Assembly (NCBI GenBank): GCA_965203905.1
Contig: CBDBDQ010000005.1
Coordinates: 2,848,001 to 2,912,000 of the forward strand
Length of the DNA: 64,000 nucleotides
DNA from: Spirochaetia bacterium
Lineage (GTDB): Bacteria; Spirochaetota; Spirochaetia; SZUA-6; Bin103
Direction of reading: 5' to 3'
The translations under genes were made by a program, and so were the position numbers. The notes below the pieces were generated by a model. That model was not told the origin of the DNA, searched no databases, and worked only from the letters and a program-made list of their open reading frames with translations. Every line of letters starts with the position of its first letter. Positions within the stretch are counted from its first letter, which is position 1. Positions 1 through 42,239 of the stretch are shown here, in pieces.

Positions 1-1819
1 AGGCGGCGCGGGCGTGGCGCCGCGCGGGTCGGGAGATGCGAGCCGTGGCCAGCGAGGCGCGTCACTACGAGTCCGCCGGCAACTACGCCGCCGCGGCCAG
101 GCGTTGGCAGCAGCTCGGCGACGACGACGGCGTACTGCGCAACTGGGAGCTGGGGCGGGACTTCGGCAAGCTGGCGCAGTACCACCTGGAGCGCAACGCC
201 CGCGGCGAGGCGGCGCGCTACCTGCAGCTCGCGGGCGACCACGCGGAGGCGGCGGTGCAGTTCCGCCGTGCCGGGCTGCTGGAGCTCGCGGCGCAGGAGT
301 TCGAGCAGGCCGGCGACCACGCGCGCGCCGCGACGCTTTACCGGCGCCTGCAGGACGGCGCCGGGTTGCTACGCTGCCTGCTCCACGACGGCGCGTTCCA
401 CGACGCGGGCCTGGAATACGAACGGCGCGGCGACCTGGAGAAGGCGGCCGACTGTTTCCGCCGCTACGCGGAAGGCTCGCCCGAGGCACGGCAGGATCTG
501 GAGCGGCGTCTCGCCAAGATCACGCCCAAGCGTCCGGGGATGCGGGCCGCCATCCGGCTGGTCGCCCTGGGCCGGTTGGACGAGGCGGCGCCCATCTACG
601 CGCGGCGCGGCCACCATGAACGTGCCGCCGAGCTGTTCAGCGAGGCCGGGCGGCCCGATCACGCGGCGCTCTGCCTGGCCGAGTGCGGCCGTTATCGGGA
701 GGCGGCGGACGAGGTCCTGCGCGGCGGCGGCGGCCATGCCATCAGGGTGGCCACCTCGTATCTGGTCGACTACCTGACCAGCGACCGGTCCGCGGCGCTG
801 AATCGGATCGGCGAGCTGAACCGGACCGCCGGTCGCCTGGTGCGCAGTGCCGCCGGCGAGCAGGCGCTGGCGTACTATCTCGCCATCGACGAGGTTGGCG
901 GCCACCTCTACCTGCACGAGGTGACCACCCTGTACGCAAAGCTCGGGCGCCACGCGGAGGCGATCGGCTACGCTCTGGACCGTGATGAAGGCGGCAACGC
1001 GGACGCCTACCTGGAAGCGCGGCCCGAGCTGGTGCTGACGCTCGACGAGGTGGAATCCCTGGCACGCGGGACCAAGCTCCGACCGCCGCTGTGGCAGGAG
1101 CACCGCGCCGAGGTCATGGGCGTGCTGTTCCGGCTCCTGCACGGATGCCTGTTTCGGGGCGCGGAACCCGATCGTCGTCCCCGGATTGCCGCGCTCATGG
1201 ATGAGGTGTCCTCGACACCGTCTACATCACGCGCCTGTCCCCGGAGTTGACCGACCTGATGATCGACCTGCGGCTCTACGATCTGATCCAGACCACCGTG
1301 GGGCTGTGGGAGTACCGTGAGGACGAGGCCGGCGACGAATACGATTACTTCGAGGAGCGGTTGGAGCGGACGGTGATGGAGGAGCGCGACCCGGAGCTGG
1401 CGCTCTGCCTGCTGCTGGATGAACCGGGGGCGTTCGAAGCGGCGATCGCGCAAGTTGAGCCGACAGCGCGCAATGTGGCGCTGTTCGCGCGCAGCAGCAC
1501 GCGCTATCCGGAAGCGGCGGCGGTGCTGGTGGAGTCGGGCGCCACGCAGCGCGCCGCCGAGGTTTGCATCCGCCATCGCGACTACGCCCGCGGCGGCAGG
1601 ATCTACGATGAATCCGGCGATCTGCAGCGCGCGGGCCGCGCCTATCGCGACGGCAGGTTGTACGCCGACGCCCACCGCTGCTTTGCGGCCTGCGGCGACG
1701 AGGCCGGCGCGGCGCGCGTGTTCGAGCGTGAGTTACGCTTGGGGGAGGCGTTGGCCATCTGGAAACGGCTCGGCCGGAAGCGCGAAGTGGACCGGGTGCG
1801 CAAGAAGATGGGGCGTTAG
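1..1819 (+). CDS. TPR-repeat C-terminal portion of a paralog of the downstream RelE-helicase-TPR protein; 5' end outside the window; split by a frameshift near 1205-1245
   Basis: Frame 3 is open from position 3. AARAWRRAGREMRAVASEARHYESAG aligns with EAARIWRGAGNEMRGVACEAKHYEAAG of 1998..6434. ORFs 36..1250 and 1247..1819 align collinearly with the C-terminal ~610 aa of that protein. Confidence 0.85.
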
Positions 1820-1997
1820 GTACTCCGTACGGTAGGCGGGGCTGGGCAGAAAGCGACGCCGGTAGGCGGAGCGGCGCCGTCCACCGCAACGGCGAGCCCT
1901 GCTGTCGATCCTGTCCGACTACCTGCACCGCAGCCGGCGCCGGTGGTAGGATGGTCGGTGGGTCGCGGCTCCTGCACGGCCCGCCGGATCTGCTTCC

Positions 1998-4900
1998 ATG
2001 GTACGAAACTACACCCTGCTTCTGCACGACGCGGTGCGCGCCCACGTGGTTTCCCTGGACGTGCGGGCGAAGCAGCGCCTGCGTGAGAAGCTGGAGTTTC
2101 TGCAGGAGGGGTTGTGGGACGCCGGGGTACGGGTCAAGAAGCTCAGGGGCAGCGGCCGCGCCGTGTTCGAGGCGCGCCTCAGCCGTGGCGACCGCATCCT
2201 GTTCACCCTGGGCGAGCCGCCGGCCGCGGACGCGAGCGGCAATGGCGCCGGCGCTACCCGCATCTACGTGTGGGGGGTGGTCAAGCACGACGACGTGAGC
2301 GCCGCCGCCGAGCGCCGCATCGTGCCCGCCAACGCGCCGTTTCTCGACTTCGAGCCGGCTCTGGTGGAGGAGTTGCCGCACCTCGATGCCGGCGACCTGG
2401 GCGGCGACTATTTCTCGCCCGCGCTCGACCAGCCGCTCGCGGCGCCGGGCGCCGATGCGCCGACCGACGCGGGACCGCAGCGCTGGCTGGTGGTGGACGA
2501 GGAGGAGTGGCGCCGGCTGCAGGCGGCCCACCCGGGCGACCACCTGGAGCTGTACCTGTTTCTGACCCGCGAGCAGGCGCGGCTGCTGCACGGCGAGCCG
2601 CCGTTGCTGCTCTCCGGCACCGCCGGCAGCGGCAAGACCACGATCGCGGTCTACTTCCTCCTGCGCCACCGGGTGCGCCAGCTTGCCGCCGCGCCCGACG
2701 GCGCCGGCGAGCCGGCCGGCGGTCGGAGCATGCGCCCTGCAACCGCGGCCCGTGGTGGCGGTGCGCGCGGCCAGCTCACGCAGGGCGCTGAGGACGGGAC
2801 AGCCGTCGTGGCGAGTGCCGAGCGGGCGCTGTTTCTCACCTGCAGCCCGCACTTGAAGCGGTTTTCGGAGCGCATCTATCGCGGGCTGGTGACGGCCACC
2901 GAGTTGGAAGACGCGGCACAGGCGGTGCGCTTCGCCACCCTCGGCGAGCTGCTCGGCGAGATCATGGGCCGCGCCGGACGCCCACGGTGGCAGGCGCCGC
3001 CAGTCGGGCTGGCCGAGTTTCGCGCCATTTTCCGCAACCACCCGGGGGCGGCCCGCTACGACGCGGAGCTGGTGTGGGAGGAGATCCGCTCCATCATCAA
3101 GGGCGCCAAGCCGCCGGTGAGCCGGCGCCGGTTCGCGGAGCTGGCGGCTCGTTTCGCGGCCGCGCAGGCGGCGCAGCGCGAGCGCAACGAGCTGGCAGAG
3201 TACGTGGTGCGGCTGGGAAACCTGGAGCCGGGCGCCAGGCTCGACGGCGCGCGCGGGCGCAAGACCGGCTTCGGCTCGCTGCAGGAATTCGCCGCCAGCC
3301 TGCGTGACGGCGCGACCGTGCGGCGTGACGAGCAACTGTTTCTGCTGCAGGCGGCCCTGCGCCTGCTGGAACGGCAGTCCACGCGTCTCGACCAGCCCCT
3401 GCTCACCCTGCGCGAGTACGAGGGGCTGGGGCACAAGCGGGCGCCCAACTTCCCGTTCGACCGGCGTGAAATCCACCGCATCGCCGAGTACTACCAGGAG
3501 CGGCTCGAGGCTGACGCCCGGTTCGACGAGATCGACCAGACCCGTGCCGCCCTGCAGTACCTGGAGCGCCACGGCGACCAGTTCCGCTACGACCTGGTGG
3601 TGTGCGACGAGGTACAGGACTTCACCGACATGCAGCTCGCCCTGCTGTTCCGCCTCGCCGGCGACCCGCGCCGCACCGTGCTCACCGGGGACCCCAAGCA
3701 GATCATCAATCCGAGCGGCTTTCGCTGGGAGGAGGTCCGAGCGCGCTACTACGAGCGCGGCCTGCAGGTGCCGGAGGTGATCAATCTCAGCATCAACTTC
3801 CGCAGCGTGGGCAACATCGTCAGCCTGGCCAACAGTCTGCTGCTGCTGAAACGCAGCCTGGTCGGGCTGGCCAGCGGTGAGATCACCGAGCGCTGGACCT
3901 TCCGCGGCCGGCCCCCGCTGCTGGTCGAGGGCCTCGCCGAGCGCGAGCTGCTGGCCACGGTGCGCCGCGGGGGTGCTGGACAGGTGGTGCTGGTGCGCAC
4001 CGAGCGGGAGCGCGATCGCCTGCGCAAGGCGCTGCAGAGCGAATTGGTGTTCACGGTGGGCGAGGCCAAGGGGCTGGAGTTCGACTCGATTCTGCTGTGG
4101 CGCTTCCCGGAGGCGGAGGGGGCGCCAGCCATCTGGCGGCGCATCGCCGCGGACCAGGTGCGTGGCGCCGCCGACACGCCGCACGTCCGCCACGAGCTGA
4201 ACCTGCTGTACGTGGCGGTGACGCGGGCACGCAACACCCTGGTGATCTGGGACGGGGAGGAGGTGAGCCCGATCTGGGGCATCGAGACGCTCGCCGACCA
4301 CGTGTACCGGTCCGCCGACGGCGCCGCCGTCGATACCCTGTGGCGACGCGTTTCGACTCCTGCCGAGTGGCAGGCACAGGGCGACTACTTCATGGAACGG
4401 GAACACTTTGCAGCCGCCGAAGAGTGCTACCGCAACGCCCAGGCGGTGGTCGAGGAGGAGCTGGCGCGCGCCCACCGGCTGGAGCGGGAGGGCGATCACC
4501 AGGCGGCAGCCGGGCTGTTCATCCGCCACGGGCGGGTGGCGCGGGCGGCCGAGGGCCTGGAGCGGGCCGGCGAGCACCTGGAGGCGGCGCGCATCTGGCG
4601 CGGTGCCGGCAACGAGATGCGTGGCGTCGCCTGCGAGGCGAAGCACTACGAAGCGGCCGGCGACCATGCCGCCGCCGCCGCCCGCTGGCAGCAGCTGGGG
4701 GTGGAGGAGGGGATGCTGCGCAACTGGGAGCGGGGCCGCGAGTTCCGCAAGCTGGCCGGGTTCTACCTGGAGCGGGAGGTTCCCGGGGAGGCGGCGCGCT
4801 ACCTCAAGCTGTGCGGCGACCACGCGCGGGCGGCGGAGCAGTTTCGCCGCGCCGGGATGCTGAGGTCGTCGGCCGCGGAGTACGAGGTGGCCGGCGACCA

Positions 4901-6434
4901 CGAGCGCGCCGCGGTGCTCTACCGGCGGCTGGGCGACAACGACGGGCTGCTGCGCAGCCTGTTCCACGCCGGCCTGTTCCACGATGCCGGGCTGCTGTAC
5001 GAGAAGCGGGGCGACCTGGAACGCGCCACCGACTGCTTCCGCCGCTATGCCGAGAGTTCGCCGCAGGCGCGTCAGGACCTGGAGCGGCGGCTCGAGGGCA
5101 TTGTCCAGAAGCATCCGGGGATGCGGGCCGCGATCCGCATGGTCGCCCTGGGCCAGCCTGAACGCGCCGCGCCGATCTACTTCCGCAACGGCCATCCGGA
5201 GCGTGCCGCGGAACTGTTCCGGGCCGCCGGACAGCGCCAGTCGGCCGCGCTGTGCCTGGCCGAGTGCGGGAGCCACCGGGAGGCCGCCCGCGAGGTCGCT
5301 GCCGGCGGCAGCGACGAGGATGTCCAGGAGGCCGCCAAGTACCTCGTCACCTACCTGGCCAGCGGCGACCCGGAGAAGCAGGACCGGGCCGGTGATCTGC
5401 TGCGTACCGGGGGCCGGCTGTTGCGCTCCGGGAACTATCAGCTGGCGCTGGCGCACTACCTGGCGGTGGGTTCCGCGCGCGGCGGCGTCTACATGCAGGA
5501 AGTGACCGCCGCCTACGCCGGGCTGGAGCGTCACGCCCTGGCCCTGGAGTATTGTCTGCACCTCAACCGCGGCGCCAGTGCAGCCGCCTACCTGGACGCG
5601 CGTCCCGAACTGGTGCTGGCGCCGTCGGAGGTGGAATCGCTGGTGCGCGGCCCCGGAGAGGGTACGGGCCCCGAAGGGCGTACGCGGCTCGAGAGTGAGG
5701 ACGAGGCCATCGAGGGTGTGCTGTTTCGGCTCATGCACGGCTGCCTGTTTCGCGGTACGGCGCCTGACCGCCGGCAGCGGATGGCCGCGCTGCTGCGCTT
5801 GTTGCCGGCCCACTACGGCCATGCCTGCCCGCTGTTCGTCGAGCTGAGTGACCTCATCGTCGAGCTGCGCCGCTACGACGTGATCATCGACATCCACACC
5901 TCGCGGATGGTCCGGCAGCCACCGGCGGACGAATTGCATGACCATCTCGTAAGCCGCCTGCAACGGACGGCAGAGGAACAGCAGGATCGGGATCTGGCGC
6001 TGTGCACGCTGCTGGACGATCTCCCGGCGTTCGACGCCGGGCTGAACGAACTCGAGGTGAGCGAGCGCAACGTGGAGCTGTTCGCGCACAGTGGGCGGCA
6101 CTATGCCGCGGCCGTAGCGTTTCTGCTGGAGCAGGGCGCTGCCGACAGGGCAGCGTCGGTGTGCATGAGCCAGGACGACTACGCCGGTGCCGGGAAGATC
6201 TACGAGCAGGCCGGGGACTTGGCCCTGGCGGGGCGCGTCTATCGCGACGGCATGTGTTTCGCCGACGCGTTACGCTGTTTCGACGCAATCGGCGACGAGG
6301 TGGAAACGGCGCGCGTCTACGAGCGCGAGCGACGCTACGACGAAGCGTTGGCGATCTGGCAGCGGCGCGGGTGCGAGCAGGACGTCGAGCGGGTACGCAG
6401 CGAGATGGCGCGGCGCAGCGGCGACGCCTTTTGA
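1998..6434 (+). CDS. RelE-like domain + SF1 (UvrD-like) helicase + TPR repeats; TRANK1-like protein
   Basis: Helicase motifs: Walker A SGTAGSGKTT, Walker B VVCDEVQD, LTGDPKQ, LSINFRS, TVGEAKGLEFD and LYVAVTRAR. The N-terminus has VKKLRG..VFEARLSRGDRILF (RelE-like). The tail is A/G/Y-patterned TPR-like sequence. Confidence 0.9.
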   Translation: MVRNYTLLLHDAVRAHVVSLDVRAKQRLREKLEFLQEGLWDAGVRVKKLRGSGRAVFEARLSRGDRILFTLGEPPAADASGNGAGATRIYVWGVVKHDDVSAAAERRIVPANAPFLDFEPALVEELPHLDAGDLGGDYFSPALDQPLAAPGADAPTDAGPQRWLVVDEEEWRRLQAAHPGDHLELYLFLTREQARLLHGEPPLLLSGTAGSGKTTIAVYFLLRHRVRQLAAAPDGAGEPAGGRSMRPATAARGGGARGQLTQGAEDGTAVVASAERALFLTCSPHLKRFSERIYRGLVTATELEDAAQAVRFATLGELLGEIMGRAGRPRWQAPPVGLAEFRAIFRNHPGAARYDAELVWEEIRSIIKGAKPPVSRRRFAELAARFAAAQAAQRERNELAEYVVRLGNLEPGARLDGARGRKTGFGSLQEFAASLRDGATVRRDEQLFLLQAALRLLERQSTRLDQPLLTLREYEGLGHKRAPNFPFDRREIHRIAEYYQERLEADARFDEIDQTRAALQYLERHGDQFRYDLVVCDEVQDFTDMQLALLFRLAGDPRRTVLTGDPKQIINPSGFRWEEVRARYYERGLQVPEVINLSINFRSVGNIVSLANSLLLLKRSLVGLASGEITERWTFRGRPPLLVEGLAERELLATVRRGGAGQVVLVRTERERDRLRKALQSELVFTVGEAKGLEFDSILLWRFPEAEGAPAIWRRIAADQVRGAADTPHVRHELNLLYVAVTRARNTLVIWDGEEVSPIWGIETLADHVYRSADGAAVDTLWRRVSTPAEWQAQGDYFMEREHFAAAEECYRNAQAVVEEELARAHRLEREGDHQAAAGLFIRHGRVARAAEGLERAGEHLEAARIWRGAGNEMRGVACEAKHYEAAGDHAAAAARWQQLGVEEGMLRNWERGREFRKLAGFYLEREVPGEAARYLKLCGDHARAAEQFRRAGMLRSSAAEYEVAGDHERAAVLYRRLGDNDGLLRSLFHAGLFHDAGLLYEKRGDLERATDCFRRYAESSPQARQDLERRLEGIVQKHPGMRAAIRMVALGQPERAAPIYFRNGHPERAAELFRAAGQRQSAALCLAECGSHREAAREVAAGGSDEDVQEAAKYLVTYLASGDPEKQDRAGDLLRTGGRLLRSGNYQLALAHYLAVGSARGGVYMQEVTAAYAGLERHALALEYCLHLNRGASAAAYLDARPELVLAPSEVESLVRGPGEGTGPEGRTRLESEDEAIEGVLFRLMHGCLFRGTAPDRRQRMAALLRLLPAHYGHACPLFVELSDLIVELRRYDVIIDIHTSRMVRQPPADELHDHLVSRLQRTAEEQQDRDLALCTLLDDLPAFDAGLNELEVSERNVELFAHSGRHYAAAVAFLLEQGAADRAASVCMSQDDYAGAGKIYEQAGDLALAGRVYRDGMCFADALRCFDAIGDEVETARVYERERRYDEALAIWQRRGCEQDVERVRSEMARRSGDAF

Positions 6435-6444
6435 CACCGGGCGC

Positions 6445-7992
6445 TCAACTCCACCGGTAGCTGTAGAGCCGGCTGCGCGTCAGCAGGAAGCGGATCTTCA
6501 CCGCTCCGCTCACGGTGGAGAGGCCGCCGTCGTTCCAGGTAACCCGCCGCTCCAGCTCGTCTCCGCGCAGCGCCACGCACTGCCGGCGCGAGAACCCGTC
6601 CAGCACCGTGCCGTCGGGCGCGCAAAGCTCCACCAGCACCTGTCCGCCGGCCGCGTCGGCGTTCACCGTGAGCTCCCGCGTTCCCGGCGGCAGCGTCACC
6701 GGCTTGGTGGTGACCACCCCGGTTTCGGCGGCGTGCAGGGCGACGAAGCGGTCGCGCCGCCAGGTGGCGCGTGCCAGGTACTTGACCCGCTTCTCCAGGT
6801 CGGTCTCGCCGTGGCCGTGCTCGCAGCCGGTGTAGTACCAGTGGATCGCGTCGCCTTCGATGACTGGCTCCTTGGCGGTGCCGATGATCATGCCCCGGTC
6901 GAAGGCGTCGCCCTCGCCGCGCGGGATTGCCGGGGTGCGCTCGCGGTCGGCGTGGGTCCAGCTCATCCCGTCGCGGCTGTACACCAGTTGCGCATCGATC
7001 GGGCCGTCGCAGGGCATCTGGTTCTTCTCGTTGGGTATCTTCTCCGCACGCACGTACAGCGCTCCCACCAGGCCGAGATGGAGGTGGTGGTAACGGAACG
7101 CCGACAGGTCATAGTACTCGGCGCGCAGTGCGCCGTAGCGGCGCCAGGCCACCGCGTCGTCCCAGCCGGTCGGCTCCAGCACCGGGCACGACTCCTTCCA
7201 GGGACCCTCCAGCGCCGGACTCTCCGTGTAGCAGATGATGCGGCGATCGTCGCGGTCGCCGCTGCGCTCGATGGAGTAGGCGCGGTACACCCGGTCGCGG
7301 GGATCCCAGGTGACGTTGAAGGCACCCTCGTTGCCGCGCGCGGTCACCGGCTGCAGGTGGTGGCGGTCGTCCCAGCGGATGCCGTCGGCCGAGGTGAGCA
7401 GGAAGATGCCCTTGTAGCGGCGGCAGTAGCCGATCGCCTTGTAGCGTTTCTCGGGGTCGGGCTCGGTGCGGTCGATGAACACCGAGGCGCCGTGCAGGTC
7501 CCACACGATGTTGTTGTCGGGGCTGCCGTTGAAGGTGAAGATGCCGAGATCGGGCTTGACCCAGTCCAGGCCGTCGTCGCTCTCCGCGTACAGGGTGAGG
7601 TCGCCGCGGTCGTTGTTCTGCAGGGCCCGACCGTGGCGGTCATGGGTCACGCCGTTGCAGTGGAAGGGACGTTCGTCGGTGCGCGGAATGTACAGGCCCG
7701 GGATCTGGTAGTTGCCCGCCGGGAAGCGCCAGTGCGGGCCCATGCGGCCCATGTACCACATGCGGTACTTGCCGATCAGGTCGTCGTAAAGCACGGTCCC
7801 GTAGAGGTGGATGCGCTTGCTCATGCCGGCGCCGCAGTACTCCCACGGCTTGTCGCGGTCGGGAGCCACCAGCACCGGGCTCTTGCTCCCGACCTGCACC
7901 TCGCGGCGGATGCCGTGCTGCTCCTGGATCAGCGCCTCGTCCAGCAGCAGGACCGGGGCTGCCGTCCACGCGTCGCCTTGGTGGCGCAGCAT
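6445..7992 (-). CDS. Hypothetical glycoside-hydrolase-like beta-propeller protein (GH32/43/130-like fold)
   Basis: Asp-box-like motifs YAESDDGLDWVKP, SADGIRW and SRDGMSW; C-terminal beta-sandwich (ELTVNADA..G...VEL); similar to 54718..56172. Confidence 0.7.
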   Translation of the reverse strand: MLRHQGDAWTAAPVLLLDEALIQEQHGIRREVQVGSKSPVLVAPDRDKPWEYCGAGMSKRIHLYGTVLYDDLIGKYRMWYMGRMGPHWRFPAGNYQIPGLYIPRTDERPFHCNGVTHDRHGRALQNNDRGDLTLYAESDDGLDWVKPDLGIFTFNGSPDNNIVWDLHGASVFIDRTEPDPEKRYKAIGYCRRYKGIFLLTSADGIRWDDRHHLQPVTARGNEGAFNVTWDPRDRVYRAYSIERSGDRDDRRIICYTESPALEGPWKESCPVLEPTGWDDAVAWRRYGALRAEYYDLSAFRYHHLHLGLVGALYVRAEKIPNEKNQMPCDGPIDAQLVYSRDGMSWTHADRERTPAIPRGEGDAFDRGMIIGTAKEPVIEGDAIHWYYTGCEHGHGETDLEKRVKYLARATWRRDRFVALHAAETGVVTTKPVTLPPGTRELTVNADAAGGQVLVELCAPDGTVLDGFSRRQCVALRGDELERRVTWNDGGLSTVSGAVKIRFLLTRSRLYSYRWS

Positions 7993-7994
7993 TG

Positions 7995-8879
7995 CTACAG
8001 GGCCAGGGACGGGGTGCGCAGCGCCGTCGCCGGGTCCGCGCCGCGGCCGTTGCCGCCGGCGGCGATCCAGGGACGGTAGCGGTACTTCGTGCGGTCCTGG
8101 AAGCGCCGGTCGGCGGCGCGGGCGGAGAGCGCCAGCTCCACCACCTGGGCGCGGCGGCGGATCTGCTCGGCGGCAAATGCTCCCTCTACCGTGGGACGCG
8201 CGTGGTAGCCGAAGTAGACGGTCACGCGCTGCTCCGGCGAACGATTGGTGAACGAGCCGTGCACCAGGTTGCGGCTGTGGACGATCACGTCGCCGGCTGC
8301 CACCGGTACCGGAATCGATCCCGGCAGCCGCTCACCGTGGCTGGCGATCTGGGCCGCGATGTCCACCCGGCCATTGCGATGGCTGCCGGGCACCACGTAC
8401 AGGCAGCCGTTGCTCTCGTCCGAGTGGTACAGGTAGATGCCGAAGTTCACGCCGCGCTCGGGCACCTCGCCGGTGGCGAAGCGGCCATCCTGGTGCCAGG
8501 CGAACGGCGCGCCGACGTGCGGCAGCTTGATCACGACCGACTCCGCGAACGGCACCCAGTCGGGCCCGTACAGCGCCTCCACCGCCTGCAGCAGCCGCGG
8601 ATTGGCGTACACCTTCAGCACGTCGGCGGAGCGAGCCAGCGGCGTACTGATGCGGTTCAACACCGGCGAACCCTCGTCGGGCGGCAGAAACGAGTAGTCG
8701 TTGGGGTAGGGGACAGGGTTGCCCTCCCGGTCGTGGGGACGGTCCGGTCCCACCGGAGCCTGGTCCAGCAGTCGGCGCACCGCATCGCGTAGCAGCGCAA
8801 CCTCGGCGCCGCTCACCAGGCCGCGGACGACCACGTAGCCGTGGCGGCGGTAGTGGGCGACCTGCTCGGGACTCAGCAT
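7995..8879 (-). CDS. Phytanoyl-CoA dioxygenase (PhyH) family Fe(II)/2OG oxygenase
   Basis: Motifs MLSPEQVAHYRRHGY, WHQD, SNGCLYVVPGSH and GDVIVH...VHGS. It is the C-terminal part of track ORF 7995..11513, with ATG at 8879. Confidence 0.88.
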   Translation of the reverse strand: MLSPEQVAHYRRHGYVVVRGLVSGAEVALLRDAVRRLLDQAPVGPDRPHDREGNPVPYPNDYSFLPPDEGSPVLNRISTPLARSADVLKVYANPRLLQAVEALYGPDWVPFAESVVIKLPHVGAPFAWHQDGRFATGEVPERGVNFGIYLYHSDESNGCLYVVPGSHRNGRVDIAAQIASHGERLPGSIPVPVAAGDVIVHSRNLVHGSFTNRSPEQRVTVYFGYHARPTVEGAFAAEQIRRRAQVVELALSARAADRRFQDRTKYRYRPWIAAGGNGRGADPATALRTPSLAL

Positions 8880-8917
8880 GGCCGCAGTATGCCGGCCGGG
8901 AGCGCGCGGCGCCAGCG

Positions 8918-10192
8918 TCAGCGGCGCGCCACCCGCGGGTCGGCGATGGTGCGCAGCAACAGCCAGCCGAGCAGCGACAGCACCACGCCGGCGATGAACA
9001 CCGGCCGGAAGTCGGCCACGTCGATCAGCCAGCCGCCGAGGATGGGCGCGGCCAGGGCGGGGGCGGCGAGCAGGGTGGTGGTGAGCGCCACGTAGGTGGG
9101 AACCCGGCCGCCGGCGCCCAGGTCCATGGTCAGGGCCGGCCGCGCCACCTTGATGCCGGCGTCGGAGACGGTAAGCAGCGCGAACGCGGCGTACATCCAC
9201 CCCGCGCCGGGCGCGAACACCATCACCAGGCCGGCGGCCGCACACAGCAGCGCCGCCACCTCGATCGCCGAGCGGTGGCCGAAGCGGTCGCCCCACCAGC
9301 CCAGCAGCGGCGTGCCGAGGGCCTGGCTGATCAGCGCCGCCATGGTGAGGGAGGCGGCGAAGGCGTCGCTGACGGCGAATGTCTCCCTCCCGTACACGAT
9401 GTAGAAGGTGACTCCCAGGGTGCCGAAGATCACCAGGAGCTGGCTCACCAGGAAGCGTGCGAAGTTGGGGTCTCCGCGCAGCACCGCCGGCAGTTCTCTC
9501 AGGTAGGCGCCGAGGCGTATCCGGGGACGGTCGGCACGGCGCGGCGGCTCGCGGTTCAGCGTCAGGAAGCTCCAGGAAATCGCCTGACCGGCGAAGGCCA
9601 GCAGGAAGCACAGCCCGAACGACACAGGGAAGGCCACCGTATCCAGGATGTGGCGCGCCAGCAGCGCACCGGCCGCGCCCATCAGCCCACCGAACGCGCT
9701 GCCGAGCCCGAACATCAGCCCCTTGCGGTCGGGATGGATGATGTTGGCCAGCATGGCGCGCCAGGCCGGGCTGGCAACGCCGACCGCGCCCTGCGAGAAC
9801 AGCAGCATGGCCACCAGGAAGGCATAGGAGAACCACGCCGGCGCCGTCGGCCACAGCAGGATGCCGAGCGCGAGGATCAGCCACGGCACGCGCTCGAACA
9901 CGCTGACCTTCACGATCCACGGTTTCTTCCGCTCCAGCGACTCGGCGCGCGCCGCCATCAGGATCTGCGGCACGTGGGACGCCACGATGTAGACGGCGGG
10001 GATGAGCCCGATCAGGACCCGCGACTCGGTCAGGTAGCTGACGTAGAGGGGCAGGATCGTGGAGATGAACACGAAGCTGCCGGCCAGGTTGACGAACGAC
10101 AGGTCGCCGATGTTGACCCAGAAGTTCCAGCCCGCGTTGCGGCGCACTGCCGCCCGGTAGGCGTCGTCGTCGAAGCGCCCGGATGCGATCAC
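8918..10192 (-). CDS. MFS transporter
   Basis: About 12 hydrophobic segments; GWWGDRFGHR MFS motif A. Confidence 0.88.
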   Translation of the reverse strand: MIASGRFDDDAYRAAVRRNAGWNFWVNIGDLSFVNLAGSFVFISTILPLYVSYLTESRVLIGLIPAVYIVASHVPQILMAARAESLERKKPWIVKVSVFERVPWLILALGILLWPTAPAWFSYAFLVAMLLFSQGAVGVASPAWRAMLANIIHPDRKGLMFGLGSAFGGLMGAAGALLARHILDTVAFPVSFGLCFLLAFAGQAISWSFLTLNREPPRRADRPRIRLGAYLRELPAVLRGDPNFARFLVSQLLVIFGTLGVTFYIVYGRETFAVSDAFAASLTMAALISQALGTPLLGWWGDRFGHRSAIEVAALLCAAAGLVMVFAPGAGWMYAAFALLTVSDAGIKVARPALTMDLGAGGRVPTYVALTTTLLAAPALAAPILGGWLIDVADFRPVFIAGVVLSLLGWLLLRTIADPRVARR

Positions 10193-10198
10193 CGGCGG

Positions 10199-11377
10199 CT
10201 ACTGTGGGGCAACCGACTCCCAGGTGCCGCTGTCCCAGGAGCGCGCCACCGCCTGCTGCACCCGCGCCACCGCGGCGGCGGCCGCCAGGCTGGCACGTCC
10301 CGGCGTGCCCTGGGCGACGGCGCTCAGAAACTCGGCCAGCTCGATGGTGAGGGTGTCGTCGTAGCCGATGCCGATGCCGGCGCCGGGGTTGAAGCGTCCG
10401 TGGTAGGGGTGCTGCGGCCCGCCGATGGCCTGGGTAAAGCCGTCGCCGGTGGCTCCGCGCTCGTCCGCGAGCCGCACCTGCAGCTCGTTGAGCCGCTCGA
10501 AGTCCCAGGCCAGCGCGCCGCGGCGGCCGTTCACCTCGAACGCCATCTGGCACTCCGGGCCGAAGATCACCCGGCACGCCTCCAGCGTGCCGCGCGCCCC
10601 GCACGCGAACTCCGCCAGGATTCCCACGTAGTCCTCGTTGGTCACCGGCCCGGTGGGGCCGCCGCGCCTGGCGCTGAAGTGGGTGCCCTCGCCGGGCGTC
10701 GCCAGCGGCCGTTCGGTGATGAAGGTGTGCTGCTGGCTCACCACCCGCCGGATCGGGCCGGCGATGAAGTGGGCGGTGTCCAGCACGTGCGAGATCAGGT
10801 CGGCCAGGGTGCCGCGGCCGGCCAGCTCGCGCTGGAAGCGCCAGGACAGCACGCCGTCCGGGTCGCGCCCGTAACCGCTGAAGAAACGCCCGCGGTAGTG
10901 GGTCAACTCGCCGAGGCGGCCGTCGGCGATCAGGCGCCGCGCCTGCTGCACCATCGGTGCCCAGGCGTAGTTGTAGCCCACCCCGCTCACCACGCCCGCG
11001 CGCTGCGCGGCGGCCGCCAGCGCCAGGGTCTCCTCCGGGCTGCGGCCCACCGGCTTCTCGCAGAACACGTGCTTGCCGGCCGCGATCGCGGCTTCCACCA
11101 TGGGCCGGTGCAGGTAGTTGGGGGCGGTGACGCTCACCACCTCCACGTCCGCCGCGGCCACCACCTCGCGCCAGTCGCCGGTGGTACGGGCAAAGCCGTA
11201 CTCGCGCTGCGCCGCGTCCCTGCGCGCCTCCACCTCGTCGGCGCACAGCACCAGCCGCGGCTCCAGGCCGCGATCGGCGAACCGGTGCCGCACCTGCAGA
11301 TAGGCGCGGCTGTGGGCGCCGCCCATCCAGCCCATGCCGATCACCCCGATGCCAAGCTGCCTGCTCATCGCCGCCAT
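10199..11377 (-). CDS. Gfo/Idh/MocA family oxidoreductase
   Basis: GIGVIGMGWMG Rossmann motif; GKHVFCEKP; DLISHVLD. Confidence 0.9.
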   Translation of the reverse strand: MAAMSRQLGIGVIGMGWMGGAHSRAYLQVRHRFADRGLEPRLVLCADEVEARRDAAQREYGFARTTGDWREVVAAADVEVVSVTAPNYLHRPMVEAAIAAGKHVFCEKPVGRSPEETLALAAAAQRAGVVSGVGYNYAWAPMVQQARRLIADGRLGELTHYRGRFFSGYGRDPDGVLSWRFQRELAGRGTLADLISHVLDTAHFIAGPIRRVVSQQHTFITERPLATPGEGTHFSARRGGPTGPVTNEDYVGILAEFACGARGTLEACRVIFGPECQMAFEVNGRRGALAWDFERLNELQVRLADERGATGDGFTQAIGGPQHPYHGRFNPGAGIGIGYDDTLTIELAEFLSAVAQGTPGRASLAAAAAVARVQQAVARSWDSGTWESVAPQ

Positions 11378-11511
11378 GATCGCATGCCGCCGCGCGCGGG
11401 CGCCAGATCCCGGCACCACCGCGGCTGCGACGGCTCGCACCGGCGGAACCCCCGGCCCGGCGTCCACGGGACAGCGACACCTGCGGCCGGTTGGCGTATG
11501 CTGGCGCTCTC

Positions 11512-12450
11512 ATGGCGGAGCTGAAGGTTGCAATCGTCGGCTGCGGGGGGCGCGGCCGGGGTCACGCGCGCCACATCGCGGGGCTGGACGGAGTACGGCT
11601 GGAAGCGGCCTGCGATCCCGTGGCGGCCACGCGCCGGGCGCTGGCGGCGGAGTTCGGAATCGCGCACCAGTATGACGAGCCGCGCCAGATGCTGGCGGCC
11701 GGGTCCGTCGACGCGGCGGTGGTGAGCGCGCCGCCGGAGCTCAACTTCGCGGCGGCCCTGCCCTGCCTGGAGGCGGGCGTGGACACCCTGGTGGAGAAGC
11801 CGCCGGGCCTGCGCGTGGCGGAGACCCGACGGCTCCAGGAGGCGGCGGCGCGCAGCGGCGCCCGCTGCATGGTAGGTTGGAACCGCCGTTTCAACCCGCT
11901 CATCGTCGAGGCGCGGCAGCGCGTCGCCGAGCGTGGCCCGCTGGTCACCGTGGTGGGCGAGTTCCACAAGAACCTGGTGCAGATCGAGGCCGAGGGCAAG
12001 CTTACGGAGCCGGTCCTGGCGCGCTTTCTCTACGAGACGCCGATCCACGCCATCGACACCCTGCGCGTCCTGGCGGGTTCGCCGGCAGGCGAGGTGCATG
12101 CCCTGTCCCGCAGCGCGGTGTCGCGCCATCGCGACGTCTTCGGGGCGCTGATCCAATTCGAGAACGGCTGCGTCGGCCACCTCGTCGCGAACGTGACCAG
12201 CGGTGCCCGGCTGGAGCGCTACGAGCTGCACGGCGCCGGGATCTCGGCCTACCTGGAGGGCGTGAGCCGGGGCCAGGCGGTGGAGGACGACGCGGTGACC
12301 GAACTCTCCCTGACGGCCGACAGCACGCTGGAGCAGGACCGCTTCTTCCTCGACTGCGTGCGCGCCGGCCGGCCCATCACCGCGCCTGCCGCCGACCTGG
12401 ACGAGGCGGTGGCGACCATGGAGCTGGCGGCGCGCATCTTCGGCGACTGA
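11512..12450 (+). CDS. Gfo/Idh/MocA family oxidoreductase
   Basis: KVAIVGCGGRG; LVEKP; VGWNRRF; IHAID. Confidence 0.88.
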   Translation: MAELKVAIVGCGGRGRGHARHIAGLDGVRLEAACDPVAATRRALAAEFGIAHQYDEPRQMLAAGSVDAAVVSAPPELNFAAALPCLEAGVDTLVEKPPGLRVAETRRLQEAAARSGARCMVGWNRRFNPLIVEARQRVAERGPLVTVVGEFHKNLVQIEAEGKLTEPVLARFLYETPIHAIDTLRVLAGSPAGEVHALSRSAVSRHRDVFGALIQFENGCVGHLVANVTSGARLERYELHGAGISAYLEGVSRGQAVEDDAVTELSLTADSTLEQDRFFLDCVRAGRPITAPAADLDEAVATMELAARIFGD

Positions 12451-16224: not shown

Positions 16225-17037
16225 CTATCCCTTGAGCGCCCCGGCGGTCAGACCGCTCACGAACTGGCGCAGGGCAATGCCGAACACCACCACCAGGGGC
16301 AGCGTGGCGATCACGAAACCGGCCATCATCGGCCCGTACTGGGTCAGGTAGGCGCCCTGGAAGAAGCGCAGGCCCACCGCTACCGGGCGCAGCGAGTCGC
16401 TGGAAATCGCCACCAGCGGCCAGATGAAGTCGTTCCAGGTGGCGAGCAGGTGCACGATCAGGATGGTGATCACCACCGGCACCGACAACGGCAGGCCGAT
16501 CAGCCAGTAGCAGTGTAGCTTGTTGGCGCCGTCCATGTACGCGGACTCGAAAATCTCCTCCGGCAGATTGGCGAAGAAGGTACGGAACACCAGGATCGAG
16601 AACGGCTGGCTGACCGCGATCCAGGGCAGGATGAGGGCCCACGGCGTATTGATCAGGCCGAACTGTCTCACCTCCATGAACAGCGGCACGAGCTGCAGCA
16701 CCGAGGGAATCATGAGCAGCGAAATGGTGGCCAGGAACAGAAAGTTGTCGCCGGGAAACCGGTAGCGGGCAAAGGCGAAGGCGGCCAGCGAGGCGAACAG
16801 GGCGATGCCCGCGATGCTCACCGTGCTGTACCAGGTGCTGTTGAACAGGTATACCGACACCACTTCCCAGGCGATCGCGTAGTTGCTCCAAGTCAGCGGA
16901 AACAGCGGCAGCCAGAACTCGTGGTAGAACTGGTTGAGGCTCTTGAACGAGGTGATGAACATGAAGACGAAGGGAAAGAAGGTGAGCACCGCGATCAAGA
17001 CGAGAATGGAGAACGCTATGATCCGTGACAGGGACAT
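16225..17037 (-). CDS. Carbohydrate ABC transporter permease (MalG-like)
   Basis: EAA loop EIFESAYMDGA; WNDFIWPL. Confidence 0.93.
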   Translation of the reverse strand: MSLSRIIAFSILVLIAVLTFFPFVFMFITSFKSLNQFYHEFWLPLFPLTWSNYAIAWEVVSVYLFNSTWYSTVSIAGIALFASLAAFAFARYRFPGDNFLFLATISLLMIPSVLQLVPLFMEVRQFGLINTPWALILPWIAVSQPFSILVFRTFFANLPEEIFESAYMDGANKLHCYWLIGLPLSVPVVITILIVHLLATWNDFIWPLVAISSDSLRPVAVGLRFFQGAYLTQYGPMMAGFVIATLPLVVVFGIALRQFVSGLTAGALKG

Positions 17038-41925: not shown

Positions 41926-42239
41926 CAGGCAAGTCGATAGTTCCGCGGGCGAGGGCTGTTCGCGATGTCGACGAAGCGCTCGCTTACTACCTGCGCGAAG
42001 GAGAAGCGCAAGCCGCGCTCGGTTTCATCGACGAACTGGAAAGAGCCTACGGCCACATTGCGCAGTATCCGGCTGCGGGCTCGTTGCGGTATGCGTGGGA
42101 GTTGGATGTGCCGGGACTGCGCTCCTGGCCACTGCAGCGCTACCCGTACCTGGTCTTCTACCGCGAGCACGAAGACCGCATCGACGTCTGGCGCGTGCTG
42201 CACGGCCAGCGCGACATCGCCGCCTGGATGCGTGAGTGA
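41922..42239 (+). CDS. parE: ParE/RelE-family toxin
   Basis: A.RDVDE...Y; YP..GS.RY; YPYLVFY...IDVWRVLHGQRD. Confidence 0.9.
   Translation: MTGKSIVPRARAVRDVDEALAYYLREGEAQAALGFIDELERAYGHIAQYPAAGSLRYAWELDVPGLRSWPLQRYPYLVFYREHEDRIDVWRVLHGQRDIAAWMRE

Follow-up and report, generated by a model that had tools for sequence, protein, structure and literature searches.

Proteins in which a RelE-like domain is joined to a superfamily 1 (SF1) helicase have only just been recognised, and they have been described as parts of multi-gene defence systems. One is ArmD, which combines a RelE-like domain with a GajB-like UvrD helicase and is essential, along with three other genes, for ARMADA type II defence (PMC12458937); its Walker A motif is needed for that defence, and the protein comes from E. 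coli NCTC 12900 (PMC12458937, bioRxiv 2025). The other is CnuH, from CoCoNuT systems of types II and III-A, where a RelE-like, RNase-toxin-like domain lies beside an SF1 helicase in a system predicted to target RNA (PMC11090510, eLife 2024). Here we describe a protein family in which the same core is predicted to occur as a single-gene protein with a long modular solenoid tail. The member studied, copy B, lies at the start of a 64,000-nucleotide stretch (G000:C5:2848001-2912000, called the window below) of a 7.99-Mb spirochaete genome of ~70% G+C. It is the last of three same-strand paralogs, A, C and B, and copy C, immediately upstream of it, is broken.

Architecture of copy B and its closest described relatives

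Copy B can be divided into the following parts, given in window coordinates. In the list, GC3 is the G+C content at third codon positions and dN/dS the ratio of nonsynonymous to synonymous substitution rates.

1998..6434, + strand: copy B, intact open frame of 1478 amino acids (aa), P0001; GC3 0.89 in frame
1998..2318, + strand: N-domain, aa 1-107, with a predicted RelE/ParE toxin fold
2568..4364, + strand: SF1 UvrD-like helicase, aa ~191-789, placed by Pfam and motifs
4365..5372, + strand: proximal alpha-solenoid, aa 790-1125, helices of ~10 residues with a 13-residue period; paralog identity 62-73%
5373..6101, + strand: distal irregular helical region, aa ~1126-1368, longer helices and loops, the fastest-evolving part; identity 31-58%, dN/dS 0.45-0.82 per sliding window
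6102..6431, + strand: terminal regular solenoid repeats, aa 1369-1478

An antisense open reading frame (ORF) at 1227-6101 was dismissed on GC3 grounds as a shadow of the high G+C content.

Conservation is highest in the N-domain, which keeps 41-63% identity between phyla where the protein as a whole has ~38%, and residues L35, G38, G43, K47, K48, E58, R60, R66, T70, Y90, W92 and H97 are invariant in 36 diverse homologs. An AlphaFold2 model built on a 35-row alignment (predicted local distance difference test score, pLDDT, of 75) has the beta-alpha-alpha-beta4-alpha topology of RelE. The best Foldseek matches of this model are archaeal RelE and YoeB (E 2e-4; template-modelling (TM) score 0.72-0.77 normalised to the target), and in a VIA-align search the top 25 chains are all of RelE/ParE/HigB/YoeB/YafQ type (Z 10.1-5.8), unrelated folds appearing only below them. 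Cami1, a CRISPR ancillary nuclease, contributes its RelE-like domain to these 25, and an insecticidal toxin is also among them. The original prediction, made from the window alone, had named a RelE domain, and a RelE/ParE fold is what the model predicts.

Sequence comparison tells against this assignment. Pfam gives no match for the N-domain of copy B, and Gp49 matches weakly (E 0.018) in 2 of the 36 members; phmmer and profile searches of PDB sequences with the N-domain returned no RelE protein, their best hit being the N-domain of McrB (E 0.016); and hhalign against 27 ParE/RelE toxins of related genomes gave a probability of 1.1%. Membership of the RelE/ParE group is thus found at the level of fold only, through the predicted structure, and sequence profiles are blind to it. 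The conserved Lys, Glu, Arg, Tyr and His residues are placed by the model on the sheet and the C-terminal helix, which suggests that the domain may be catalytically competent.

The helicase is recognised by Pfam above the gathering scores of PF00580 (UvrD-helicase, 40.8 bits; cut-off 23) and PF13361 (UvrD_C, 35.2 bits; cut-off 25.6). Its Walker A motif, GTAGSGKT, lies at residue 207 and is followed by CDEVQDF at 536, GDPKQ at 564 and VAVTRAR at 739, and the core motifs are intact in both A and B. On these domains and on motifs I, II, III and VI, the region is assigned by sequence to the UvrD/Rep SF1A helicases. PADLOC and NCBIfam provide just generic partial matches to UvrD, GajB, PcrA and RecB, and a search of the ESM Atlas returned nothing beyond generic UvrD clusters.

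The C-terminal ~690 residues (aa 790-1478) are modelled as an all-helical solenoid (pLDDT 91.7). The label of tetratricopeptide repeats (TPRs), which the original prediction gave to this tail, is not borne out by the sequence: Pfam TPR_9 scores 20.8 bits against a cut-off of 35, and the model has hairpins of ~26 residues, not a 34-residue repeat. A fair name for the predicted structure is a TPR-like alpha-solenoid, not a canonical TPR domain. Foldseek matches it to IFT-A, Ski3, Ctr9, OGT and clathrin with E values of 5e-8 to 1e-4 but TM scores no higher than 0.21, and some homologs have sub-family Pfam matches to Clathrin, SNAP and TPR.

Compared by description, ArmD of ARMADA type II is the closest described architecture: in both proteins an N-terminal RelE-like domain is fused to a UvrD-family SF1 helicase. 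As described in the ARMADA paper, ArmD belongs to a four-gene operon with ArmA, ArmB and ArmC, none of which lies near A, B or C, and no mention is made of a long solenoid tail, whereas the present family adds ~690 residues. CnuH shares the pairing of a RelE-like domain with an SF1 helicase. However, its helicase is Upf1-like, not UvrD-like, it is encoded in McrBC-type operons with other domains, and it has no solenoid tail.

With the RelE, YoeB, HigB and ParE toxins, the N-domain has in common its predicted fold and topology (Z up to 10.1). It differs from them in that no sequence-profile similarity was detected, in its fusion to a 1370-residue helicase-solenoid, and in the absence of a small adjacent antitoxin gene, copy B being preceded by a 178-bp spacer and the remnant of C, and copy A by the gene for a solute-binding protein. 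GajB and the UvrD/Rep/PcrA SF1A helicases share motifs and Pfam domains with copy B, and the GajB models of PADLOC match parts of it (E 1e-10 to 1e-7). However, these matches span only stretches of ~90 residues, no GajA (an OLD-type nuclease) was found nearby, and the N- and C-terminal domains of copy B are foreign to GajB.

A more general likeness is to the STAND/NLR-like sensors of the Avs type, in which a long C-terminus of helical repeats, most variable in its distal part, comes after an NTPase. In the present family, by contrast, the NTPase is an SF1 helicase, the copies are stably syntenic and conserved in the family, and no evidence of diversifying selection was found here. Pfam, PADLOC and NCBIfam recognised only SF1 helicase NTPase families, and no STAND (NACHT/NB-ARC) module. 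Likewise, a BrxHII-like helicase, a PglX-like methylase and a YprA-like helicase are absent among the neighbours of A, C and B or of their relatives. Since the defining partners or modules were looked for and not found, the family is no member of ARMADA, Gabija or STAND. In the full-text literature searched, which did not extend to subscription journals and supplements, there is no description of a RelE-UvrD-solenoid protein, and only the ArmD and CoCoNuT papers emerged.

The three-paralog cluster and the broken copy C

A tblastn search of the whole genome with copy B, together with a self-comparison of the region, located three same-strand (+) paralogs, in the order A, C, B, inside 32 kb. Copy A is intact and lies 23 kb upstream of B; it occupies C5:2822681-2827006 and encodes 1441 aa with 68% identity to B (the tblastn match, C5:2822681-2826985, is full length at 66%). 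Copy C is matched in two places, at C5:2836555-2837703 (B residues 1-415) and at C5:2847175-2849816 (B residues 587-1472, in two frames). At the nucleotide level A and C are 85-87% identical, and A and B, like C and B, 73-80%. The part of C that falls in the window, with the sequences flanking copy B, is as follows.

1..1250, + strand: copy C 3' piece, frame-3 part, B residues ~863-1278; premature stop at 1248-1250
1216..1217, + strand: copy C frameshift, a 1-nt deletion relative to copies A and B
1217..1819, + strand: copy C frame-2 continuation, B residues ~1279-1472; native stop at 1817-1819
1820..1997, no strand: spacer between C and B, 178 bp
6445..7992, - strand: convergent gene of 515 aa without a Pfam family, kept as the downstream neighbour in the genus-level relatives G010, G001 and G007

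Positions 1-1819 (+) are collinear with the C-terminal 616 residues of copy B (~863-1478), and so the original prediction was right to see there the end of a same-orientation paralog directly upstream, and further copies beyond it are represented by copy A. It had taken the upstream copy to be one reading frame, which it is not. The open frames run from 3 to 1250 (frame 3) and from 1247 to 1819 (frame 2), the stop at 1248-1250 being reached because of the 1-nt deletion at 1216/1217.

The frameshift is the lesser of the lesions. The 5' piece of copy C (C5:2836555-2837706) ends after B residues 1-415, which take in the N-domain and Walker A. The 3' piece (C5:2847174-2849819), which begins outside the window, corresponds to residues 587-1478. 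Copy C has nothing to match B residues ~416-586, some 170 residues in which helicase motifs II and III lie. Between the pieces lie 9.46 kb (C5:2837710-2847173; L001 1710-11173) of lower GC3 with genes of their own, for a sulfatase and for an ABC peptide transporter (a family-5 solute-binding protein and two ABC permeases). At its left end the insert holds a minus-strand C-terminal fragment of a DDE transposase (DDE_Tnp_1, PF01609, E 2.8e-5), and 573 bp of this end recur at three further places in the genome (C5:1278736, C5:5786044 and C1:5374). The right end holds the N-terminal zinc domain of an IS91-family transposase (Zn_Tnp_IS91, PF14319, E 3.4e-14), to the remnant of which the 3' piece of copy C is fused in frame at B residue 587; elsewhere the genome has two more partial copies of IS91 (C5:270441 and C5:5121166), which run on into the transposase body. 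With an insert bearing transposase remnants, the loss of ~170 residues and a frameshift, copy C is a pseudogene, produced by a transposon-associated insertion and deletion and, in addition, by the frameshift.

The breaks were checked by comparing contigs of four public sequencing runs over 20 kb. It is very improbable that they are an artefact of assembly or sequencing and that the genome truly holds an intact C-B tandem. Indel errors are common in long-read metagenome-assembled genomes (MAGs), the frame is open at the site of the deletion in related strains, and intact C-type proteins exist, all of which would suit such an artefact. However, a contig of run X1 (1108 bases, depth 12.8) crosses the frameshift without differences from the window, and the main disruption is no indel but a 9.46-kb insert with genes, lower GC3 and transposase fragments that recur in the genome, over which X1 contigs show no differences as far as L001 position 11096. 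As X1 may itself be the source sample, its agreement on the frameshift is not independent support for the deletion. No contig listed for the four runs bridges the IS91-helicase junction (L001 position 11174), which rests on the assembly and on X1 contigs on both sides. Contig joints with short sides, such as that from L001 481 to 11169 in X4 (side 25), were set aside as unreliable. In runs X2 and X4, contigs that are ~98% identical carry one extra T behind L001 13216 (window 1216) and the frame is open; the frameshift is therefore strain-specific and recent.

In close relatives the C-type gene is full length. The proteins P0037 and P0038 are uninterrupted at 1435 aa; their identity is 98% and 96% with the 5' piece of C and 92% with the 3' piece, but only 83% with A, while P0040 is 99% identical to A. 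Their intactness points to a full-length C-type gene and to an ancestral cluster of three paralogs. A further pair, P0008 (88% identical to B) and P0041 (of A/C type), are both recorded from a contig of 15,654 bases, which would fit an intact tandem pair. As to whether the upstream gene has the RelE and helicase domains or is a stand-alone fragment lacking the helicase, each is partly true: the ancestor was full length, and in this genome C is split by the insert, lacks the residues with motifs II and III, and is frameshifted.

Copy C arose by duplication in the lineage of A and is no tandem copy of B. In a quick maximum-likelihood tree of 22 sequences A and C are sisters (support 100), and their 82% amino acid identity, with a synonymous divergence (dS) of 0.36, compares with 68% and a dS of 0.64 for A and B. 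Copy B groups with orthologs that belong to other genomes of the genus (G001, G004, G005, G007, G009 and G010), and a third genus-level clade comprises G001_2, G006_2 and G007_2; by this tree, the split between A/C and B predates the genus. The gene for the solute-binding protein directly upstream of A is 86-91% identical to the gene upstream of B-type orthologs in G007, G001 and G010, and a counterpart of the 515-aa gene that follows B lies downstream of the gene in G010 (85%) and, at 72%, downstream of the second copy in both G001 and G007. By this synteny, the cluster grew at one ancestral locus.

Within the genus the copy number varies from 1 to 3. In G004 the second copy is interrupted (L021, G004:C3, 6735-7337 and 9317-13083), with the N-terminal 197 residues followed by ~2 kb of other DNA and a change of frame, and this is an independent pseudogenisation. 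A sister-genus genome, G022, has two full-length same-strand copies ~22 kb apart (L011 and L012; G022:C1:310510-314889 and 332477-336772), a spacing that echoes that of A and B.

Some further observations concern the surroundings of the paralogs. A consensus scan of the spacer between C and B found no sigma-70-like promoter or terminator. A 192-base contig of the coral metatranscriptome run X19 is identical to copy B (L001 15568-15759, window 3568-3759); as DNA carry-over is possible, it was not counted as expression and is a weak hint of transcription. Beyond the 515-aa gene, a 1172-aa ORF at 7995-11513 (-) has a PhyH domain only at its C-terminal end, is matched by relatives in pieces of ~400 aa and shows two frames in the GC3 scan; it is probably not a single gene. 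At 41946-42215 (+) there is a match to ParE_toxin (PF05016, E 1.1e-11), and the small contig C2 has one that scores equally at 16472-16741; this region may be duplicated on a small replicon or contig. Some 3-9 kb upstream of copy A, an AddB-like PD-(D/E)XK nuclease (PF12705, E 1e-32; L002 378-3314 (-)) and an adjoining ORF of ~1350 aa (G000:C5:2813073-2817116 (-)) are probably a repair pair of the AddAB/AdnAB type, unrelated to the paralog cluster.

The gradient of divergence along the protein

From the window, the original prediction had described a first ~230 residues over which the two copies are near-collinear and very similar, followed by a markedly diverged stretch that keeps only scattered anchors, and it had taken this contrast for diversification of the tail after duplication. 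The contrast itself is real. Over B residues 863-1092, C and B are collinear without gaps and identical at 161/230 positions (70%); over residues 1093-1478 they are identical at 185/374 (49%) with 13 gap columns (Fisher p = 8e-7). The quoted anchors RWQQLG, DCFRRYAE, PGMRAAIR, ARPELVL, VLFRL.HGCLFRG and LALC.LLD are all present. 'Very similar' overstates the proximal part, as its 70% lies below the 78-95% of the helicase. Copies A and B give 67% and 49% in the same two regions. In sliding windows of 60 codons, their identity is 78-95% in the helicase, 62-70% in the proximal repeats (840-1079) and 31-58% in the distal part (1080-1478), where dN/dS is 0.36-0.82 per sliding window, with a maximum of 0.82 and no value above 1. 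The distal part is thus the fastest-evolving one, and divergence is not uniform along the protein.

Orthologs, however, show the same gradient. The A/B profile recurs (Spearman 0.86-0.90, 25 sliding windows) in four comparison sets: B against four B-type orthologs, A against three orthologs from the other clade at genus level, five single-copy orthologs of the sister genus, and pairs between genera. The ratio of distal to proximal divergence is ~1.55 for A and B and 1.44-1.68 for the ortholog sets, and among close B orthologs (84-98% identical overall) the differences are concentrated after residue 1080. Region by region, over 11 pairs, dN/dS is 0.21-0.97 in the distal part and 0.14-0.35 in the helicase; the distal value of 0.65 for A and B is exceeded by those of the ortholog pairs G010/G009 (0.84) and G011/G012 (0.97). 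Certain distal anchors (D541, N569, G617, R650, E653 and R676 in the numbering of the C-terminal alignment) are invariant even between phyla. Because orthologs have the same profile with equal or higher dN/dS, the gradient is a property of the family. The fall in identity from proximal to distal reflects a family-wide gradient of constraint under net purifying selection and is no product of duplication.

A diversifying array would be expected to have dN/dS above 1 in the recognition region, with higher values in paralogs than in orthologs, and neither was seen at the level of sliding windows or of regions. Thus, diversification of the tail after duplication is not upheld; the original prediction was right about the pattern in the sequence and over-read its meaning, and the protein family is of more interest than the divergence pattern. 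The lesson for method is that a gradient of divergence between paralogs needs a comparison with orthologs before it is read as diversification. The distal region can also be lost: B-type orthologs of 1214 aa in G001 (L006 7869-11513) and 1218 aa in G004 (L020 7597-11253) keep the motif at the C-terminal end and are without residues ~1172-1460, that is, nearly the whole distal region.

Distribution and possible roles of the family

The gene is present in 22/23 genomes of the same family of spirochaetes, in about 6/17 genomes from other families of the order and, in a sample of other genomes from the whole phylum that are at least 90% complete, in 2/200. Near-identical sequence is found in runs labelled sponge, coral or marine metagenome, the locus being present in 20 runs from 11 studies, and MAGs labelled Desulfobacterota, Marinimicrobia, Ignavibacteria, Aminicenantes and others contain full-length homologs with 32-48% identity. 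At 64 distant loci, 40 homologs align end to end in one frame, 8 lose similarity after residue ~1100-1200, 6 have frame breaks (some of which may be sequencing errors) and 10 are truncated where their contig ends. Searched with a profile of the N-domain, 1.84 billion representatives yield just 229 clusters at E <= 0.001, of which 129 reach E <= 1e-10. The weaker, second-tier members that were tested have a UvrD helicase right behind the N-domain in 10/10 cases, with total lengths of 820-1899 aa. These sequences point to the predicted RelE fold and the helicase as a constant core, and to a variable C-terminal extension, which may be nearly absent or exceed 1000 residues. Rare and patchily distributed among phyla, the family is nevertheless fixed in one family of spirochaetes and has grown there to three copies.

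Our preferred explanation, which we hold with moderate confidence as a whole, combines the three-paralog cluster, a broken copy C, the family-wide gradient and a RelE-helicase engine with an exchangeable tail. A full-length copy C was disrupted by an insertion or rearrangement bounded by the DDE-transposase and IS91 fragments, which brought in the ABC peptide transporter and the sulfatase, with the loss of ~170 helicase residues, and the strain-specific 1-nt deletion came afterwards. The distal solenoid evolves ~1.5 times faster than the proximal one, in orthologs and paralogs alike. The RelE-fold and helicase core would be the catalytic engine, probably an ATP-driven nuclease or binder directed to RNA or to the ribosome, as the RelE fold is in every characterised case among the structural matches. 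Since the core is constant across the wider family and the C-terminal extension variable, the solenoid, as an exchangeable module for partner binding or regulation, most likely serves to bind a partner or to restrain the core. On this wider scale, the intuition of a modular tail in the original prediction is a reasonable one. Copies A and B may differ in their preference for partners, and such a difference would be inherited from the old split that preceded the genus, not acquired by recent local diversification.

What such a protein does for the cell can be approached from two sides. The patchy distribution, the small size of the family and the gain and loss of copies within a genus incline us towards a role in conflict or defence, a proposition that we rate a little short of evenly balanced, while fixation and stable synteny in one family keep alive a lineage-specific housekeeping role. 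The latter could be that of an enzyme for the surveillance of stalled ribosomes or mRNA, or of a repair helicase, with redundant or subfunctionalised paralogs and a tail that is a weakly constrained scaffold. It would accord with the conserved synteny in 22/23 family genomes (a solute-binding gene upstream, the 515-aa gene downstream), with the extreme conservation of the N-domain relative to the whole protein, with purifying selection throughout, with the mostly metabolic or housekeeping neighbours at distant loci, and with the appearance of Ski3, a TPR scaffold of a ribosome-bound RNA-helicase complex, among the generic solenoid matches. However, those matches, with TM scores of at most 0.21, carry no functional weight, and a housekeeping enzyme sits awkwardly with presence in 2/200 other genomes of the phylum and scattered occurrence in many other phyla, with a very small family of 229 clusters, and with copy gain, loss and pseudogenisation within one genus. 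We see it as a possibility that deserves consideration without being the expected one. Less likely again is an array akin to immune receptors, with a ligand-binding tail diversified after duplication, under positive selection, into different specificities. Such an array could draw on the three paralogs inside 32 kb, the highest dN/dS in the distal region (up to 0.82 per sliding window), the copy number of 1 to 3 among close genomes, the broken copies here, in G004 and possibly at 6/64 distant loci, the short forms without the distal region, the wide variation in C-terminal length across the wider family, the action in defence of the related architecture of ArmD, and a Crinalium plasmid on which a 1095-aa relative lies beside DUF262 and DUF3696 genes. 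Against this are the orthologs, with the same gradient and equal or higher dN/dS, the absence of any sliding window with dN/dS above 1, the invariance of distal anchor residues across phyla, the age of the split between A/C and B, older than the genus, and the death of the adjacent copy in this genome; sequencing errors, besides, may account for some of the frame breaks in other MAGs. The neighbours of A, C and B are transporters, hydantoinase genes and a sulfatase, and a scan of the neighbours at this locus found no defence-gene context. The modular, fast-evolving tail is supported and diversification after duplication is not; the likeness to immune receptors stays an analogy, and we think such an array unlikely.

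Several observations weigh against the preferred explanation, and in particular against its leaning towards conflict. Presence in 22/23 family genomes with stable synteny among transporter and metabolic genes argues against a typical mobile defence gene; the neighbours in the family are transporters, oxidoreductases and glycosidases. No conserved neighbour is shared across the 64 distant loci, the sole recurrent one being a single promiscuous cluster found at 9/64 loci in varying positions. A Pfam scan covered the nearest ORFs of 25/64 distant loci (75 of 193 candidate ORFs): 5 of the 25 had clear toxin-antitoxin, restriction-modification or transposase neighbours, 6 were ambiguous, and the rest had metabolic or housekeeping ones. 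Phage records gave no match, and plasmid records three weak ones. In two ortholog pairs the region-wide dN/dS is near 1 and could mask individual sites under positive selection, which are beyond the resolution of the window method, and the quick tree leaves the branching order of the three genus-level clades unsettled.

On the boldest reading, which we consider doubtful, the family would be a stand-alone protein of immunity or surveillance that has yet to be described. An invader or a stress cue would be sensed by the distal solenoid, and the UvrD motor would pass the signal to the RelE-fold domain, whose action would be to cut or clamp RNA at the ribosome. In this marine-invertebrate-associated spirochaete, the three copies A, C and B would then be a small repertoire of different specificities with birth-death turnover, in which C is dying. 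The family is a tractable candidate in which to study the role of a RelE fold tethered to a helicase, and the use of helical-repeat tails as specificity modules outside the STAND proteins.

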